NCBI GenBank assembly: GCA_000004985.1
Contig: GG738898.1
Length of the DNA: 64,000 nucleotides
Strand: one strand, 5' to 3'
From: Naegleria gruberi
Taxonomy: Eukaryota
Positions 3,360 through 13,894 of this stretch are shown piece after piece. Numbering within the stretch: the first letter of the stretch is position 1; each line of letters starts with the position of its first letter. Below the pieces are notes generated by a model. The model was not told the DNA's origin. It saw nothing but the letters and a program-made list of their open reading frames with translations, and made no database searches. Made by a program: the position numbers and the translations under genes.

Positions 3360-4706
3360 CTACCAATCAACCTCTTTGTAATTCTTGTATAATTTTCCAT
3401 ACTTGAAACTTCCAGAAAGGATAGGGTGCAGAACTCTGAAGGCAGCATCAAGATCAGTAAGAGGAGGAGCTCTATATGCAGGTAAAGCAGAGGATACCCA
3501 ACCAGTATCTACACTATTCACCAAAATTCCATTTCTAGCATAATATTCGCTGCAACTCCTCGTTAGCATATTTAGACTTGCCTTACTAGTATTGGTTTGA
3601 ATATGACTATCAGATTTCCCACTCGTCTCAAATTGTCCCTCATGAGAAGTGACATTGATTATAAAACTATGCCCAAAACGAACTGAATGATGGATGTCAT
3701 TTTCTTCTAAATCTTGGCTGTCATCATATGATGGTTTCATAATTTCAAACAACTCTGAAGCTAGAATGGTTGGAGAAACGGTATTAATCATTTGAGATTC
3801 TACAATTTCAGTGACGGATACATCAGAAAGCTTCTCATTCCAAGAGTTTGTAGGCCTATAATCGACTTGTTCTCCCCAAATATCTTTTTCACCTTTAGGA
3901 AAGTAATCATAAGTCAATGACGCATCATCTAATCTGGTTTCAGTTGACTTGGTAATTTCAATAGATTTCTCGATAAGGTTTGAATCATTTTCATGAATAA
4001 TTGGCATGGCACTTTCTTCACTTTTGGTCAGGTACTTTTGTTCAGACTTTAACAGTGATTTGTAGTATTCTAGTGGCCGTTTTACAGTCTGGGCAGCATT
4101 GTTAATTAATATATGGATTTGTTTGAAATTCTTCTTGATATATTGAGTGAAATCAATAACTGACTTTCCATCTTTGAGATTTAGTGGGTATATCAATAAT
4201 CTATCGTACCACTCAGAAAAGTCTTTACATTTCTTAAACTTTAACAGAGCGTCAGATGCAAATCTGGTTTCTTTTGTAAAATATATAGTTAAAAATACTT
4301 ACCTAGTAGTAACAATAACTTTCGCACCCAACCTCAACAAAACGAGAGCAGTTTGAAGACCAATCTTGATTCTCCCTCCAGTTACAATGGCTGCCTTATC
4401 ACAAAGAAGATTACTGGGATATGAGTATTCTCTAATTGCGTCATTGAAATGATTACAATGTGAGCACATGGAATGTCTATTATCTAGATGTTTTTCTCCT
4501 CCTCTCCTATTCGTGACACTGTACTTGCGTTGAGTTTTGTAATGAATATATTTACCACATAAATAGCATTTGAAGAAGTTGTACTTTTCTCGTAGATGAC
4601 TCTCAAAATATCCCTCAAGAAAGTAATGAGAGAGATCAACACTGAATAACTGTCTCAAAGATTTTACAAAATAGTGAATATCCTCTGTGGTAATGTGGTG
4701 CTTAAT
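3360..4706 (-). CDS. Short-chain dehydrogenase/reductase (SDR) with a Cys/His-rich N-terminal extension. It has 2 exons, and its 5' end runs into the gap.
   Basis: The Rossmann motif AAIVTGGRIKIGLQTALVLLRLGAKVIVTTR lies at 4303..4400 on the minus strand. The exon ends AG|GTAAGT with the donor at 4302. A 39-nt intron spans 4264..4302 and ends AAACCAG. Exon 2 (3360..4263) continues FASDALLKF...HILINNAAQT (the NNAG motif) and ...NVTSHEG...TSKASLNMLTRS (a degenerate YxxxK region). Upstream of the Rossmann fold there are about 130 aa containing CYLCGKY...CSHCNH. The ORF is open into the N-run at 4707. Confidence 0.75.
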
Positions 4707-4895: not shown

Positions 4896-6843
4896 ATCAC
4901 TCTCTAATAAGGCGCTCAATCTTGGTGGTACATTCTACCTTCCATATAGACACCACTATTCTGTAGAACAATTATTGGAGGCATATCCTTCCTTTACTGA
5001 GTTTGTCGGTTTCAAAAAGTACCTAGATCCAAACAGAGTCTTTAATAATATGTGGTTTGATAACTATTCAAAGCTTGTGGAAAATAAGTTTGGAACCATT
5101 AGCCCAAAGCCAATTTCTATTTCTCCATTTGTTAGTTTATTCCCAAACAACAACACTTTCATCAATAACAAGAATTATCATTTTATGACTAGTTTGGGTA
5201 AACAAGTTAACCAGAGTAGAGTTTTTGATTTTTTGAGATATGTCTTTCCAGTAGTTGATGCTAAAGAATTCCAAAGATTTCTTTTGATAAATAAGCAGCT
5301 AGACGACAAGCAACTTTACAACTTAATTCAATCAAATTACCTTAATTCAAACATTTCAAAAGCGAAGATATTATTTAATCTTGTAAGATATAACACGTTC
5401 ATACTTGCTAAAGAAATTGAAAGGCAAATATCTGAATTACTTGAAAGCAATATCCTTCACAATAGAAAGTTTGATGGCCAGTTGACCATTGGAGATTGTG
5501 GAAGATTTACAAATTTATTGAAGAAGAAATTCAAAGTTAGTGGCTCATCCTTTGTAGTCAATGATAAAGAAAGAGCAACCGATGTATTAGAGAGGAAATC
5601 TTTAACACCAGTCGGTAAATTTGTACCATATGATCAATTACACGATATTCCTTCTAATAGTGTAGATTTAATAACTTGTTTCATAGGATTGCATCACTAC
5701 ACTGACACAGAACTAAACTTGTACATGAAAGAACTCAAAAGAATTCTTAGACCTAATGGAATATTTATTTTGAGAGAGCACGATGTGGACAACGAACACA
5801 TGGAATCTATGGTTCATGTAGCTCACAATATTTTCAATGCCCTGACAGGTTTGACATTTGAGGATAATGAGAAGGAATTCAGACACTTCAGATCTATGAA
5901 AGAATGGAATAGCATTTGCAAATCATTTGGATTTTACAACTTGGAAAATTATCAACTTCAACATGGCGACTCCACAATAGATTTAATGACTGCCTACGTT
6001 AATGAAAAAGATGGTGATCATGCATCCACAAATGTCACCAATCCTATTGATAGTTCTATTGGAAATTTGATGAATATTACAGATAAGGATTACAAAAGAG
6101 ATCAAAACAAGACAGATTTTACCATACCAGAGTGGTTCACAGTTGAAATTGTTCAACACATGGGACGCTTCTTGCAACATACTCCTTGGTATGATTATCC
6201 ATATAATCATACTATTTCCAAATTCTGGAAACTCTTCTTCAACTCTTGTACAAGAGTAATGAAGAGGGATGGATTGAAACAAGTCTTTGCAGGATACTTC
6301 TTTATGAATCTGACTATTGGAGCTATTTCATCCATACTCCTTGCACAAATGGGTATTTTGGCAATGCTTCCTCGTTTTGGATCAAAATTCTTCAATAATA
6401 CAACTGCCAATATTACAACTATTCAGGCAATTATTTCTGCTAAGGAAGATATAAGATCCACCCTTGAAAAATGTGACATTCACATCATTAATGAAACTAT
6501 GAATGACAAGAGAGAATATCTTTATCATGTCAAATTACCAAGATTCCTCCCATTCACACAATCACTTCAACACCTCGCAAAACAAACTCCATATGCACAA
6601 CTAGAGGAAATTGCTGGCAATCAAATGGTCAATGTTAAAATCACTATCAGAAATCCAAACATTATCAAATTCAGCTCCCTTGTCAAGTGCCAAGAAATTG
6701 AAAATTATCAAGTTGTACCAAATAATGAGCATCACAACGAGACTGTCATTATCTATTCTGTCTCTGTAAAAAATCTAATTCAATTTTTGAGAGAAGCAAT
6801 GAATCAGACTGGACTAGAACAAATCCAGATTCATGATTTTTAA
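4896..6843 (+). CDS. 5'-truncated multidomain protein combining a sugar-1,4-lactone-oxidase (ALO/GULO)-like FAD-oxidase C-terminal tail, a class I SAM-dependent methyltransferase-like domain and a long C-terminal region
   Basis: The ORF is open from the first base after the gap. The N-terminal ...LGGTFYLPYRHHYSVEQLLEAYPSFTEFVGFKKYLDPNRVFNNMWFDNY matches the conserved C-terminal end of ALO/GULO-type FAD-linked oxidases (YP.F.EF...R..LDP.G.F.N.Y). Downstream methyltransferase motifs are TIGDCGRFT (motif I-like), VVNDKERA (acidic motif II) and VDLITCFIGLHHYTD...LKRILRPNGIFILREHDV (motifs III/IV). A hydrophobic stretch AGYFFMNLTIGAISSILLAQMGILAML follows. Stop at 6841-6843. Confidence 0.6.
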
Positions 6844-7895: not shown

Positions 7896-9008
7896 TTAAG
7901 CCCATCTTAATAAAACCTCTGCTGCTTTCTTTGTTTCTGGATTCTTTATCTTGCTGAATAGGGATCGAGCTTTTTCTAAATCTTTTGGAACTCCTTCCCC
8001 ACCGTTCAAATAAATAGCTCCAAGATTAAAAAGGGAATTATCATTACCTTGATCGGCTGCTTTTTGTAACCAATAAATAGCTTTGGCTTTGTCTTCTTTA
8101 ACTCCTGTTCCCATATTGTACATGGCCCCCAGGTTATTCTGTGCTGATACATCACCTTTGTTAGCCAGTTGCTCGAGCCAGTTCACATCTGTTGAATAAT
8201 CCTTCTTGCTTATCTCATGTAGAGCTGCAATAGAACCTTGAAAACCTTGACTGGCAGCTTTTTCTAACCATTGAATTCCAATTTGATAATCCTGTTTAAC
8301 CCCAATTCCATTAAAGTACATTATTCCAACATTGTGTTGTGAGTGAACATATCCTCCTTCTGCTGATTTCAAGTACCAATCAAAGGCAGTAAATGGGTTC
8401 TTCTCTACTGCATCCCCTCTTGCATAAAAACCACCCAAGTTATATTGAGCTTTTGCATATCCATTATCAGACGCTTTTTTGAACCAATACAATGCCTTTG
8501 ACTTGTCACCAATCGCAAGATATTGGACCCCAAGATTATTCTGTGCTTTTACGTGGTTTTGATTGGCTGATTTTTCAAAAAACTGCAGTGCTATTTCAAT
8601 ATTTTTAGGCACACCCAAACCTTCCTGGTACAAGTAACCCAAATTAAATTGAGCTTCTGAATTATTTTGTTCAGCCGATTTCTCATACCAATAGACAGCT
8701 TTCTTATAATCAATGTCAACTCCAGTTCCATTTTGATAAGCAGCTCCAAGATTATTCTGTGCTATGGAATCTCCTGTATCAGCTTGTAGTTGAAGTAATT
8801 CAAGAGATGATTTGTTGGGTGATGATTTGAAAAAATTCATAAAGCCTAATCCCTTTGATGAAGCATGAAACGATCTAATGTTTAAATTAGTATTAATATT
8901 ATTATTGATTACAGCAAATGGTAATGAACATTCCGAGAATTTTGTCATCAAAGGCTTTGGTAAAAACTTTGAATTCAACAAGAAGGCTGTCTTTTTGATT
9001 GCTCTCAT
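7896..9008 (-). CDS. Sel1-like (TPR-family) repeat protein, about 8 repeats, with an N-terminal presequence-like region
   Basis: An uninterrupted 370-aa ORF with repeated A.(N/Q)NLG.(M/L)Y..G.GV..D..KA..W(Y/F).KAA.QG motifs, for example AQNNLGAAYQNGTGVDIDYKKAVYWYEKSAEQN. The N-terminus MRAIKKTAFLLNSKFLPKPL is basic and hydroxylated. Confidence 0.9.
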   Translation of the reverse strand: MRAIKKTAFLLNSKFLPKPLMTKFSECSLPFAVINNNINTNLNIRSFHASSKGLGFMNFFKSSPNKSSLELLQLQADTGDSIAQNNLGAAYQNGTGVDIDYKKAVYWYEKSAEQNNSEAQFNLGYLYQEGLGVPKNIEIALQFFEKSANQNHVKAQNNLGVQYLAIGDKSKALYWFKKASDNGYAKAQYNLGGFYARGDAVEKNPFTAFDWYLKSAEGGYVHSQHNVGIMYFNGIGVKQDYQIGIQWLEKAASQGFQGSIAALHEISKKDYSTDVNWLEQLANKGDVSAQNNLGAMYNMGTGVKEDKAKAIYWLQKAADQGNDNSLFNLGAIYLNGGEGVPKDLEKARSLFSKIKNPETKKAAEVLLRWA

Positions 9009-9209
9009 TTTTTAACAATATTAATTTATTAAATTGATTGAAAAATTAAAAAAATTATAAAGCTTGCGCGCTTATTTTACTGAACGGATTTTTGAAAATT
9101 AAAATCGAATAGTTTGGCGCCAAATGATTACAGCACTAAAAAACGTTACCATCATCTTTAAAAAAAATACCTCAACACACTATCTTCTCAACCCAACGAC
9201 ACCAATACA

Positions 9210-10076
9210 ATGAATACATCACTCCATACACCAAAGAAGAATAGTCAGTTCTCTGTTGGCTCTCCTCCTCAACCAAATTCTATTCAACAATCATCAATTG
9301 CCTCTGTCGGATCACCTTCAACTTCTGCTTCTCTATTGACTGGCATTGATTTTAAGGCTATTGAGGATATGGATCCATCGTTAGCAGAAGGACATAGAAC
9401 AATCTTTGATAAGGAAATACCAATTGAATTACGTACTCAAGATCAAAATGAGTCTGACAATGATCTAGGAACCCTTGAAGCTATCAGAGTTAAAATCCTC
9501 ATCTTGGAAGGAGAACACGAAGACGAGGCTCATGTAAAGTTGGAACTTACTTCCGAGTCTGATCTTTTCTTCCATTATTCTCACACTGTTGGAAGACAAC
9601 AATTTATTGGCCTGCAACAATCCCAAAAGTTGATGGTTGATTTCCCAAATTATCCAAAAATGTTGAGCAAGATGTTGAATGCTTGTGTCAAGGAACCAGA
9701 AAGTTTCTTATGTATCTTGATTATGGAAAGAGATGGAAAAGGATTGCTTAATTTTGTTCAAAATATGGAATACAAGGTAAGTGTTTGAGAATCATTGAAA
9801 ATTTAACAATGTCAGTTTGTGGAATTACTGAGTTTGGAATTGAGTGAAAGTCCAGAACATGTTATTCGTCAACATATTTCATTCAGATATAACAGTATGA
9901 GGTCAAGAGTTGCTATCCTCAACGCTAGATTGCAAGAAGTTTCCAACATTATTAAGATTAAGAACCCATCCCTGTTGTTGCACTTAAGTCGTGCTGTAAC
10001 AGGAGCCCAAACAAGTCTTTCTGCTCCATCATCCTCCTATTTAAATACTCAACAACCTGTACAAAAGAAGAAATAA
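9210..10076 (+). CDS. SAS-6-like protein (PISA-type head domain, no long coiled-coil). It has 2 exons with a 39-nt intron at 9777..9815.
   Basis: Exon 1 ends ...NMEYK, with the donor GTAAGTG at 9777. The acceptor is CAG at 9813-9815, and the intron is 39 nt with an in-frame stop. Exon 2 begins FVELLSLELSE in the same frame. The core DLFFHYSHTVGRQQFIGLQQSQKLMVDFPNYPKMLSKMLNAC matches the SAS-6 head-domain signature (D.FFLY..v.eEdFq.LK.qQ.L.VDF..FP..li.LL..C). The protein is only about 277 aa, like SAS6L paralogs rather than canonical SAS-6. Confidence 0.6.
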
Positions 10077-10092
10077 ACTAGGGACAATCTTT

Positions 10093-11295
10093 TTATTCGA
10101 TATTTTCCACAAGAGCCATCAATTGTTCACTTGATGAAGGTCTAGCAGCTGGATCCAATTGTAAAGTCATTTGAACAAAGTCCAACAATTCTTCACTGTA
10201 AATATCCTTCAACTCATTACAAATATCACTGACAAAGTTTGGATTCTTGGATAATTCCTCTTTAACATCGGTCATTCTCTGTGAAAGAATTTCTAAAATG
10301 ATAACACCTAGGGACCAAATATCACTCGATGCTGAATAGTCCTGTCCTTTAGCTTGCTCTGGAGACATGTAGCACTCTGTTCCAACTTTGGCATTTTCCA
10401 CAGATTTTACAAAACAACTCAATCCAAAATCTCCAATTCTCAACTCATCTCTCTCATTATCATTGAAGAAAATATTCTCTGGTTTCAAATCTCTGTGAAG
10501 ATAACCTTTCGTATGAATAAAAACTAGAGCAGCAGTCAATTTTCTCAACCAATTCACTACCAGTGTTTGACTGACAAGTGAGGATGCACCATTCTTCTTC
10601 TTGAACCTATCCAAGTACATTCTCAAGTCTCCTCCCTTGCAAAACTCCAAAATAATACAGAGAACATATTCTTGTTTTCCTGCATCACTTTCACTAGCTC
10701 CTACTCCAATAGTATCGGCAATAATTGTCGATTCCTTTTGTTCAACGAAAAAGTCATGAATTGAATTGATATACTCGTGTCTCAATGAATAGAGAGATTT
10801 GATTTCATTAAAGTTCTGATTCAATTCTTGTATGGTTCTCAGCTTGATTCTCTTCATGACATAGAACTTCTTTTCAGTAGAATCCTTCTCAGAAACTATA
10901 TAGGCAGCACCCTGAGCTCCAAGTCCAATACGTTTCTTGATAGCATACTTTTCACTATAGTCAGTTCCCTTACTTTCAATTGCTGTTTCAAGAGTTGATT
11001 TGATTGCTTCCTCTTCTTCGGGTGTCAGTTTGGGATTGGTAATGAGTTTCTGTGGACGCTTTGGTGGTCCAGTTGGTACATTTTCCGTTACACTGTCAAA
11101 TAAGTGTTGCTTTGGTACAAGTGAAGTGGTTTGAATTTGTGAGGAAGGTCTCTTTAAAATATTCGAAATGAAATTGGAGAAACCTCTCTTCTTGACAGTT
11201 GGTTTTGGAATACTGGCGCTCTTCTTTCCTGAATCCTTCATTATTCCTGAAATACTCAACACATCTGAAACTCCATTATCACTACAATTCATCAT
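10093..11295 (-). CDS. Ser/Thr protein kinase
   Basis: A 400-aa ORF with a Gly loop IGLGAQGAAY, the lysine motif YVMKRIKL, the catalytic loop HRDLKPENIFF, DFG (IGDFGLS) and the activation/APE region GTECYMSPE. A basic, low-complexity N-terminal linker of about 110 aa precedes the domain. See the finding on a possible splice from the upstream G-alpha gene. Confidence 0.9.
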   Translation of the reverse strand: MMNCSDNGVSDVLSISGIMKDSGKKSASIPKPTVKKRGFSNFISNILKRPSSQIQTTSLVPKQHLFDSVTENVPTGPPKRPQKLITNPKLTPEEEEAIKSTLETAIESKGTDYSEKYAIKKRIGLGAQGAAYIVSEKDSTEKKFYVMKRIKLRTIQELNQNFNEIKSLYSLRHEYINSIHDFFVEQKESTIIADTIGVGASESDAGKQEYVLCIILEFCKGGDLRMYLDRFKKKNGASSLVSQTLVVNWLRKLTAALVFIHTKGYLHRDLKPENIFFNDNERDELRIGDFGLSCFVKSVENAKVGTECYMSPEQAKGQDYSASSDIWSLGVIILEILSQRMTDVKEELSKNPNFVSDICNELKDIYSEELLDFVQMTLQLDPAARPSSSEQLMALVENIE

Positions 11296-11327
11296 TAATA
11301 AATATTTTGAAAATATTGTAATAATAC

Positions 11328-13136
11328 TTACTTGAGAAGAATCTTTAAATTATCATTCTTTAGTGAAGGTGGATTTGAGTCTGACTGTCTCAATATAGAA
11401 TCTAAACCCTCCTCAAACAAATATTTGACAAATGACTTGTCAATTGCAGACATTTCATACATGTGAATTGACTTTTTAGACTTCAATTCCGTTCTAATAA
11501 TGTTATAGAACAATCTTCCAATATATTTCCTACTATTATCGAAAACATTTTGTGGTTCTGTTGATAAATTAATTCCTCCTGTCGATGCGGTTATTGTGGT
11601 GAATGCAGAAACATGGAAACCTTGCTTCTCAAAATCTGGAAATATCACAGAGATTGACTTGTCCTTTTCCTCAATCTTTTCCTTAAAAACATCCATCTTG
11701 TTGAGTACAATTACAAATTCAGATTCCAAATTTCTCATATTCATCTCTTGACAAACAGATTTTAACACTTCAATGGATTCTTGAAGTTTGTTCTTATTTT
11801 TCTGATCACACGAATTGACATCAAAATCAGCCACTGAAACCACATAAACAATCACATCAGGTTTGGCTTCCAATAGAAGGGCCCACTTTTTTCTTTCACA
11901 TCTCTCACCACCAGTATCGTAGACTTTCACAACAGTGGATTTACTAATTTTCACATCCACTGAATTGATACCAGTTGTTTGCACTCTCATTTTAAAATAA
12001 TCATCTTCAGTTGCTATTATTATTGCATTCGAATCACATTATTCTAAACGTGGAAATTACTTACGTTTATAATCTTCCTTGAAAATTCTATTGATATTCT
12101 TCATGAAATAGACAATATTTTCACTAATATGAAAATTAAAATCCGTAGCATTCATAAATAAATATCTCACAGCATTATTCCTCCAAATTGCCTTGATATC
12201 CGATTTCAATTCTTTCAAACCTCCTTCATAATCAATATGCCAACTTCTCTCATTCATCGTCTTGGTCGAAATAAACTTGATCCTATTCACAATCTTTTCC
12301 TCTGCCTTGTTCCATTCGAATTGGAAAGAAGAAATGAGTGAATTTCTTCTCCTATTTTCATTACTCATATTCATATTCACATCAAATTGTTGTTGTTGAT
12401 TGATTTCATCATTGGCAAATGTTGTCCTTCCTCTATTGAATAGTGATGGTTTTTGAGAATCGTTACTTGTTGTTTTTGAAGTTAATGGACTTGATTGACC
12501 TAAAGAGGAAGGAGACAAACCTGATGAAGATGTAGAAGCACTTGATGTTTCTAATAGTTTAGAATGTCTCATTGCAGTGCTAACAGCACTAATTCCCAAC
12601 AAGGAATCATCACCAAGAGCATTTTCATCAAAACTATTCGAAAGTATAGAACGATCACTAAATTGTGAAGGATTGCTCTTTACAAGATTTATCAATTCAT
12701 CAGAAAGTCTTCTATCATGTCTCGTACTCGCCTTTCTCTCTAAATTCGGCATTGATGTATTCGAAACCGCCTCTCTACTAGCACTTGTAATTGCGTTGCT
12801 GCTGCCATTATTATCAGAAAGTAAACTATTGTTTGCCACAAATTGTTCCATAAATTTTATGGCCCTCTTGATGTGATGAACAATTTCATACTGAAGTGAA
12901 GTTTTAATTAAAATTCGATTTTCTTGCGTTGAATGAAAATTACAAAATTGAGCATTTCCATATAACGATCGACAACTTTTGAAAATTGTGCTTTTACCAC
13001 TTTCGGAAGTACCTAATAGTGCAACTACTGGGATGGTGTGGATGGTTGTTGTTGATGAGGGAAATGGAAATGGTGGAGATGAAGTTGTTGGTGATGGTGG
13101 AACCATTTTTTTGATTTTAAAATTGGCAGATGACAC
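11328..13136 (-). CDS. Heterotrimeric G-protein alpha subunit. It has 2 exons with a 51-nt intron at 12014..12064.
   Basis: Exon 1 (13136..12065) contains the G1 P-loop LLGTSESGKSTIFK and a Ser-rich insertion of about 150 aa in the helical domain. It ends ...IFKEDYK + C. The donor is GTAAGT at 12064 and the acceptor AATAATAATAG ends at 12014. Exon 2 (12013..11328) starts CA to give Pro, then TEDDYFKMRVQTTGI, which matches PTQQDVLRTRVKTTGI of G-alpha-i. Further motifs are DTGGERCERKKW (G3), LNKMD (G4) and a canonical C-terminus ...KNDNLKILLK. The join is in phase. Confidence 0.9.
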
Positions 13137-13894
13137 TTGACTGGTTTTTAATAGAATGGCATTGCGACTTGAGCGTCAGATGGAAGAGAATTTTCAGTGC
13201 AACACTCGGCAACGAATAAAAATTCATTGAATATTTTGGTTTTTGTCTATGATTTCAAGTTCACAAGTAAAATGCTTCTCAAAATTTCGAGATTATTCGA
13301 AATTGAGCTTGTTATTTTGTAAAATAAGAAATGAATTGTACAATCCAAGGGTACAACAAGCCAAAAGGTTGGCATTTGGTCATGCATTAAAATCTTTCCA
13401 TTTATCTATAAATGGGAATTAACAACTTGTCGACTTTTACCACCTCAACAGCACCAATGATTTAGAACTAACAATTATGAGATTTCAGGTGAGAGTTCTG
13501 CAAATAGTGGTACATGCCACACCAACAGATCGTTACGTAGACCTCTCTGAAAAACATGCAAACATTATGACAATTACAAAAGCTGGAACACATGGCCTTA
13601 GTGTAAAAGCGGGTGTTTGAATCAGCTTTCCTCAGTTACTATTAGTATTATCACTCTTTCAATGCGTATGTTAGATAGGTGATTGATAGAAATAAACTTG
13701 TAATATTGTTGAAAGTTTTTTTTTGATTAGTTAGTTCACATACTAATTCGCCGTGGACGAAAGTTTGGTTTAAAATGGCTTGAAACTAAAGGCTTGTAAA
13801 AGTGAACAGAGGAAAGATAACAAATGTAAATTATTAGAATTAGTTTTTAATCAATTAGTTTACTTTACATTAGTTAAAAATTAGTCAAAATTGC

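Follow-up and report, generated by a model that had tools for sequence, protein, structure and literature searches.

A G-alpha stop codon inside a candidate splice donor: a probable G-alpha-like GTPase-kinase fusion gene in Naegleria gruberi and its heterolobosean orthologs

The window analyzed here is the whole stretch of 64,000 nucleotides (nt) of Naegleria gruberi DNA (contig GG738898.1), and the subject is a region of its minus strand, 13106..10093, in which a G-alpha-like open reading frame (ORF) is closely followed by an ORF of 400 amino acids (aa) for a Ser/Thr kinase. A preceding reading made from the letters alone (the sequence-only reading) had pointed out that the G-alpha stop codon sits inside a perfect GTAAGT donor and that removal of 50 nt would join the G-alpha frame to that of the kinase, so that either a fusion or two genes with a 32-bp spacer could be present. 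The minus strand of 13500..9500 was read, ORFs were listed and gene models were rebuilt by script, and every coordinate and all of the arithmetic behind this observation were reproduced on the minus strand. The region is most probably (about 90%) one three-exon gene encoding a 970-aa fusion of a G-alpha-like GTPase with a protein kinase, because its predicted product is identical to a deposited model and because both the architecture and the splice junction are conserved across Heterolobosea.

Gene model and junction interval

The predicted gene consists of the following parts (a slash within a nucleotide sequence marks an exon border).

Exon 1, 12065..13106, minus strand: ATG at 13106; G-alpha-like N-terminal part with the P-loop GTSESGKST (13013..12987) and a Ser/Thr/Asn-rich insert; the model equals XP_002672374.1 and the domain is Pfam G-alpha.
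Intron 1, 12014..12064, minus strand: 51 nt, GTAAGT...ATAG, phase 1; interrupts the coding sequence between YK and PTEDD, shortly ahead of switch I.
Exon 2, 11332..12013, minus strand: core of the G-alpha-like GTPase with switch I, switch II, NKMD, beta6/alpha5 and the conserved tail KNDNLKILL, as aligned to G-alpha-i3.
Junction intron (predicted), 11282..11331, minus strand: 50 nt, AA/GTAAGT...TGTAG/T, phase 2; its removal is required by the deposited model, and orthologous introns exist.
Exon 3, 10093..11281, minus strand: linker of ~115 aa, Ser/Thr kinase domain at ~10947..10123 (Pfam Pkinase), stop TAA at 10095..10093.

The G-alpha frame ends on the minus strand as AAG ATT CTT CTC AAG TAA, and the stop TAA (11330..11328) lies within the donor AA/GTAAGT (GTAAGT at 11331..11326). 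From 11331 to 11282 the interval measures exactly 50 nt (GTAAGTATTATTACAATATTTTCAAAATATTTATTAATGATGAATTGTAG), with a G+C content of 16% and TGTAG at its 3′ end. Joining CTC AA (last base 11332) to T GAT AAT GGA (first base 11281) gives KILL-N-DNGVSDVL in the frame of the 400-aa kinase ORF (11295..10093), and the junction peptide of the spliced product is ILLNDNGVSDVLSISGIMK. In the unspliced alternative, the 32 nt between the G-alpha TAA and the first kinase ATG at 11295 are as the sequence-only reading had counted them; the two adjacent candidate starts, ATGATG at 11295..11290, are located inside the 50-nt interval.

With its GT donor, AG acceptor, local consensus and genome-typical size, the interval has the properties of a GT-AG intron, and it fits in size and signals with the other likely introns in the window (39-76 nt, mostly GTAAGT...YAG). 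Among these is intron 1, which had been taken as the reference for the GTAAGT...TAG pattern and was recovered at 12064..12014; N. lovaniensis and N. fowleri have an intron of 50 and 55 nt, respectively, at this position, and Willaertia magna has none. An enrichment of GTAAGT was considered as evidence for introns and rejected: the two strands of the window together contain 24 copies, and 23-40 would be expected. With the hexamer thus no more frequent than by chance, the signal for the intron is the conserved in-frame junction described below and not the motif.

The position of the stop codon follows from the phase of the intron, since the codon split by a phase-2 intron takes up the G of the donor, and the next codon in the retained sequence is then the TAA of G/TAAGT. 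A second phase-2 GTAAGT candidate in the window (4302..4264) would likewise lead to an immediate stop if retained. Judged from sequence, it is very probable that the TAA at the junction is part of the GTAAGT donor consensus and that ATGATG is intron sequence. The sequence-only reading had counted against a fusion that the stop falls at the canonical free C-terminus of G-alpha. This is correct to the extent that the stop comes just past the end of the fold: beyond the position of "VIIK" in G-alpha-i there are 18 residues to the junction versus 9 remaining in G-alpha-i, which places the junction just beyond the G-alpha fold. The argument is nevertheless weaker than it looks, because any retained phase-2 GTAAGT intron reads XX/G TAA, and because other features for coupling to receptors and G-beta-gamma (N-terminal helix, Gly2) appear to be absent from this protein.

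By exact-sequence look-up, the spliced 970-aa product was found to be identical to a deposited N. gruberi protein (EFC39630.1 / XP_002672374.1 / NAEGRDRAFT_72548) on a 310-kb contig, and the public collection searched contained no entry for the 575-aa G-alpha or the 400-aa kinase by itself. A 399-aa entry containing the kinase only (P0002) was rejected as evidence that the kinase is a gene of its own: it was called in prokaryote style on N. gruberi-like DNA, a 2.7-kb metagenome contig in ENA, and for this reason is uninformative on splicing. The same accession, XP_002672374.1, identifies the gene of the window as Gpa22, listed as "G alpha subunit with protein kinase domain" in the Ras-superfamily table of Herman et al. 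2021 (BMC Biol 19:142, PMC8296547; supplementary file 10) with NfowleriV212_g11904.t1 as its N. fowleri ortholog. Gpa22 is present in that paper only as a listed architecture, and no functional or transcript-level description of it was found in the literature: De Mendoza et al. 2014 mention for N. gruberi just a lineage-specific G-alpha expansion, and the fusion is not discussed in a paper on N. fowleri G-protein biochemistry (PMC9283941) or in the Acrasis kona genome paper. The fusion is therefore already known at the level of annotation, as a deposited model catalogued in 2021; the earlier description of it as an unusual signalling architecture stands with regard to "unusual", but the architecture is not new.

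Conservation of the junction and rival readings

Orthologs were searched for with the 970-aa protein. A word-indexed homolog search returned four matches, the candidates having probably been swamped by the low-complexity insert of the query, and included the N. lovaniensis ortholog C9374_000833 (836 aa, 57% identity), which contains both domains. An exhaustive HMMER search with the fused protein, followed by cluster look-up and Pfam scans, was then considered for its best 150 matches and gave ABK040_005274 of W. magna (856 aa, a single alignment stretch over query residues 237-970), AKO1_008272 of A. kona (753 aa) and FDP41_011780 of N. fowleri (1067 aa). The comparison with related genomes that the sequence-only reading had proposed as a check thus shows the two domains fused in N. 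fowleri, N. lovaniensis, W. magna and A. kona; the Pfam order is G-alpha and then Pkinase in every ortholog, and BLASTP and a five-way alignment run unbroken across the junction. No G-alpha-kinase fusion outside Heterolobosea was found among the best 150 matches. Five entries with long multi-stretch matches (P0012, P0014, P0015, P0017 and P0019) were rejected as fusions from other lineages since they are proteins with several kinase domains, and four others (P0016, P0043, P0114 and P0127) carry G-alpha domains without a kinase, P0016 clearly having two G-alpha domains.

The four ortholog loci were fetched, each protein was mapped exactly onto its DNA, and the junctions were compared. The introns found at the junction are as follows, with the length of read-through if the intron is retained and the position of the first in-frame ATG relative to the acceptor.

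N. gruberi: AA/GTAAGT...GTAG/T; 50 nt; stop after 1 codon; first in-frame ATG at -14 nt.
N. lovaniensis: GA/GTATGT...CCAG/T; 73 nt; 25 codons, then TGA; first in-frame ATG at +79 nt.
N. fowleri: GA/GTATGT...ACAG/T; 174 nt; 21 codons, then TGA; first in-frame ATG at +79 nt.
W. magna: GA/GTAAGT...ATAG/T; 47 nt; stop after 1 codon; first in-frame ATG at +43 nt.

In each of these species the intron interrupts one and the same codon (N or D) after its second base (phase 2), behind the conserved tail KNDN(L/I)(K/R)IL(L/V). The sizes of 50, 73, 174 and 47 nt correspond to 2, 1, 0 and 2 modulo 3, and the kinase frame is restored by splicing in each of the four. A GTAAGT donor, as in N. gruberi and W. 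magna, goes with an immediate read-through stop, and the GTATGT donor of the other two does not; the apparent G-alpha stop and kinase ATG of N. gruberi are not conserved among N. lovaniensis, N. fowleri and W. magna.

The peptide encoded right behind the acceptor is conserved in all five species (SD/E-x-x-S-N/I-A/S…K-x-x-G), reading DNGVSDVLSISGIMKDSG in N. gruberi, EKRTINIGEFASNASLSKHAG in N. lovaniensis, GCETISDEFSNASFMKNSG in W. magna and HMSDIFSVDTIATSDA in A. kona. In N. lovaniensis, N. fowleri and W. magna it lies upstream of the first available ATG and therefore cannot be part of a kinase made on its own. A. kona has no intron at the junction, and one open exon of 450 codons (L005 3987..5336) takes in the G-alpha beta6/alpha5 region (SHIYVMDTIEHYQDVINLFETCLGPL), the linker and the whole kinase in this order; since the junction lies within this single exon, the A. 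kona fusion can be read straight from the sequence and needs no intron prediction. Together with the deposited model, this conserved junction supports the fusion that had been raised as a possibility from the N. gruberi letters.

A natural variant is provided by a metagenome contig (L002; ENA ERZ929261, contig k127_136195) of N. gruberi-like DNA that is 98.8% identical to 11528..8807 of the window. The exons of the fusion gene differ by nine substitutions (eight in the kinase exon, one in G-alpha exon 2), all of them synonymous, as the translated products are identical. The 50-nt intron carries a single substitution, which changes the first ATG (11295..11293) to ATA and leaves GTAAGT and TGTAG as they are. 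Loss of this ATG speaks weakly against a kinase start there, weakly because the second ATG remains.

Two other readings of the locus were weighed. The better surviving one, which is improbable, holds that both products are made, namely the spliced fusion and a G-alpha ending in KILLK from transcripts retaining the intron, possibly with an internally initiated kinase in addition. In its favor, retention would terminate G-alpha at once and without an aberrant tail in N. gruberi and W. magna, and a Met within (I/F)MK(D/N)SG occurs shortly past the junction in N. gruberi, W. magna and a Naegleria-like metagenome fragment (P0009); however, clean termination comes automatically from phase 2 and GTAAGT, G-alpha would gain 21-25 hydrophobic residues from a retained intron in N. 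fowleri and N. lovaniensis, and the Met is absent from these two species. Even less probable are two tandem genes, with G-alpha ending at TAA 11330..11328, a kinase starting 32 nt further on from ATG 11295 or 11292, and a coincidental GTAAGT...TAG: both ORFs are complete in N. gruberi, the stop is only a few residues past the end of the canonical G-alpha fold, GTAAGT is not enriched in the window, and tiny spacers are tolerated in this genome (the stops of the kinase and the convergent SAS-6 gene are 16 nt apart), but in N. lovaniensis, N. fowleri and W. magna it is the in-frame splice junction that is conserved and not the stop and start, conserved coding sequence precedes every candidate start in these species, the A. 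kona junction lies within one exon, the separate proteins appear in no database entry except for the prokaryote-style call mentioned above, and the first ATG is lost in the natural variant.

Several points weigh against the single fusion gene. The main weakness is that splicing in N. gruberi is deduced entirely from sequence comparison and gene models. The gene models are themselves predictions and are not fully independent, the A. kona annotation having taken the N. gruberi proteome as evidence; the N. fowleri model comes from BRAKER1 with RNA sequencing data. In addition, the unspliced reading of N. gruberi is self-consistent: the stop falls close to where G-alpha canonically ends, an ATG follows after 32 nt, and a second ATG survives in the variant contig. 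With a fusion gene as the preferred reading, neither the donor-embedded stop nor the 32-bp spacer would be more than the ordinary outcome of a phase-2 GTAAGT intron within a single gene, and the public annotation would be right.

Some observations were made beside these comparisons. The differences between the variant contig and the window are mostly insertions and deletions, clustered in the intergenic 9034..9049 upstream of SAS-6. The JGI/IMG and Logan assemblies contain more Naegleria-like fragments of this gene, which were called in prokaryote style and extend into introns (P0009, P0011, P0013 and P0025). A GTTGTTAACTTTGAT... segment occurs twice in the junction intron of N. fowleri (L003 5071..5244), a sign that this intron, with 174 nt far longer than those of the relatives (47-73 nt), may have grown by internal tandem duplication. 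The N. lovaniensis model C9374_000833 starts at L001 6001 without the G-alpha N-terminus; as the upstream ORFs L001 5310..5564 and 5558..5992 encode MRANATS... and a P-loop GCSDSGKST matching the 1067-aa N. fowleri model, it looks N-terminally truncated, and the sequence around L001 5560 appears to contain a frameshift or an intron missing from the annotation.

The two halves of the protein and the neighboring genes

The G-alpha-like half scores 199.9 bits against Pfam PF00503 (cut-off 48.8), and its best solved-structure matches are G-alpha subunits. In alignment with G-alpha-i3, the P-loop GTSESGKST, the Arg and Thr of switch I (MRVQTTGI), the NKxD motif (LNKMD) and beta6/alpha5 are kept. 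The switch II motif DTGGER (11918..11901, minus strand) has Glu (codon GAG, 11906..11904) in place of the catalytic Gln; DTGGER is shared by the three Naegleria species, W. magna has DIGGDL, and DTGGQR is found in A. kona only. As Naegleria thus has Glu and Willaertia Asp where Acrasis has kept Gln, the pattern suggests that GTPase activity may have been lost or altered after the fusion arose. The N. gruberi protein begins with MVPPSPTT..., a Pro/Ser/Thr-rich stretch of 31 residues ahead of the P-loop that has no Gly2, and the W. magna and A. kona proteins start ~10 residues before the P-loop. Neither an amphipathic helix N-terminal to the P-loop nor a Gly2 lipidation site was seen in the N. 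gruberi protein by inspection of its sequence. The C-terminal tail of this half is not free but runs on into the linker. Where the helical domain of G-alpha should be, a low-complexity insert rich in Ser, Thr, Asn and Gln is present (12850..12330, minus strand; residues ~95-260), which in the five-way alignment varies in size among the Naegleria species and is largely absent from Willaertia and Acrasis.

The kinase half scores 155.1 bits against Pfam PF00069 Pkinase (cut-off 31.7) and contains GLGAQG, VMK, HRDLKPEN, DFG and SPE, which are mostly invariant across the five orthologs, so that it looks like an active Ser/Thr kinase. Its nearest solved structures over the full kinase domain are PKR (97 bits, the top match), followed by HRI and PERK, with the N-lobe insert between beta4 and beta5 aligned; NEK kinases match the C-lobe only. 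The PKR score is modest; membership in the eIF2-alpha kinase family is just a lead, and a link of this half to translation control is possible.

If the ordinary 50-nt phase-2 GT-AG intron at 11331..11282 is removed by the spliceosome, the G-alpha-like domain, the linker and the kinase would be contained in one chain. ROCO proteins (Roc-COR-kinase; LRRK2 and the Dictyostelium Roco kinases) carry GTPase and protein kinase domains in one polypeptide, and in a similar manner to ROCO/LRRK proteins the G-alpha-like domain may act as an intramolecular guanine-nucleotide switch for the attached kinase, probably a slow or non-hydrolyzing one. Control of the kinase by a GTP switch is, however, pure inference, and this counts among the points against the reading as a whole. 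The domain probably does not act as a heterotrimeric subunit coupled to receptors or G-beta-gamma, because the N-terminal helix and lipidation site seem to be absent, the C-terminal tail is not free and Glu replaces the catalytic Gln.

More tentatively, and with considerable doubt, the gene may belong to a family, found in this analysis only in Heterolobosea, that predates the split of Naegleria, Willaertia and Acrasis and in which a G-alpha-derived domain left heterotrimeric receptor signaling and became the built-in guanine-nucleotide switch of a PKR-like kinase. If so, the ROCO-type principle of a GTPase gating a kinase in cis would have been invented a second time and independently, here possibly to act on translation control, and regulated retention of the junction intron could also release a stand-alone G-alpha in N. 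gruberi. What is of interest at this locus is no longer the splice-site puzzle but the biology of a rare G-alpha-type GTPase-kinase fusion, which is apparently confined to Heterolobosea and is conserved among five of these amoebae, one of them the pathogen N. fowleri.

The gene neighbors are alike in the three Naegleria species, a convergent SAS-6 gene being located immediately downstream. In the window this SAS-6 homolog occupies 9210..10076 on the plus strand, and its orthologs carry the N-terminal domain PF16531. As its stop (10076) and that of the kinase (10093) are separated by only 16 nt, the 3′ untranslated regions of the two genes must overlap. The N. gruberi SAS-6 gene has a 39-nt intron at 9777..9815 (GTAAGT...CAG, between MEYK and ..ELLSLE), which is not present in N. 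lovaniensis, where the ORF L001 8728..9567 is continuous. A further ORF of 370 aa (7896..9008, minus strand) is identical to EFC39629.1 ("predicted protein") and unrelated to the fusion; it contains repeats of AQ(N/Y)NLG..Y..G.GV and by eye resembles a Sel1/TPR-like repeat protein.

Comparison with known systems

Homology of the G-alpha-like half to canonical G-alpha subunits (G-alpha-i/t, N. fowleri G-alpha 8vga and Entamoeba G-alpha1 4fid) is clear. The protein of the window differs from them in the Glu of switch II, in the long low-complexity insert, in a tail that continues into linker and kinase and, by inspection, in the apparent lack of the N-terminal amphipathic helix and Gly2 lipidation site. 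Over its whole domain the kinase half is matched best, among solved structures, by PKR and the other eIF2-alpha kinases (EIF2AK1-4), at a modest score; double-stranded RNA-binding, heme, luminal or HisRS-like regulatory domains are missing from the protein of the window.

The likeness to ROCO proteins lies in the combination of a GTPase and a kinase in one chain and, by analogy, in the likely logic, a nucleotide switch controlling the kinase from within that chain. The GTPase of the window is G-alpha-like (PF00503, with the helical-domain region) and not a Ras-like Roc, and its kinase is PKR-like and not TKL-like. Pfam reported no Roc, COR or repeat domains in the fusion protein, only G-alpha and a weak Arf-type similarity, and since a Roc or COR domain is lacking, the predicted protein is not a member of the ROCO family. 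Plant extra-large G proteins (XLG) contain a divergent G-alpha-like domain with altered catalytic residues within a larger protein, and the fusion likewise embeds a divergent G-alpha-like domain with an altered catalytic residue. The XLG extension is N-terminal and has no kinase, whereas the domain added in the predicted fusion of N. gruberi is C-terminal and would be catalytic.

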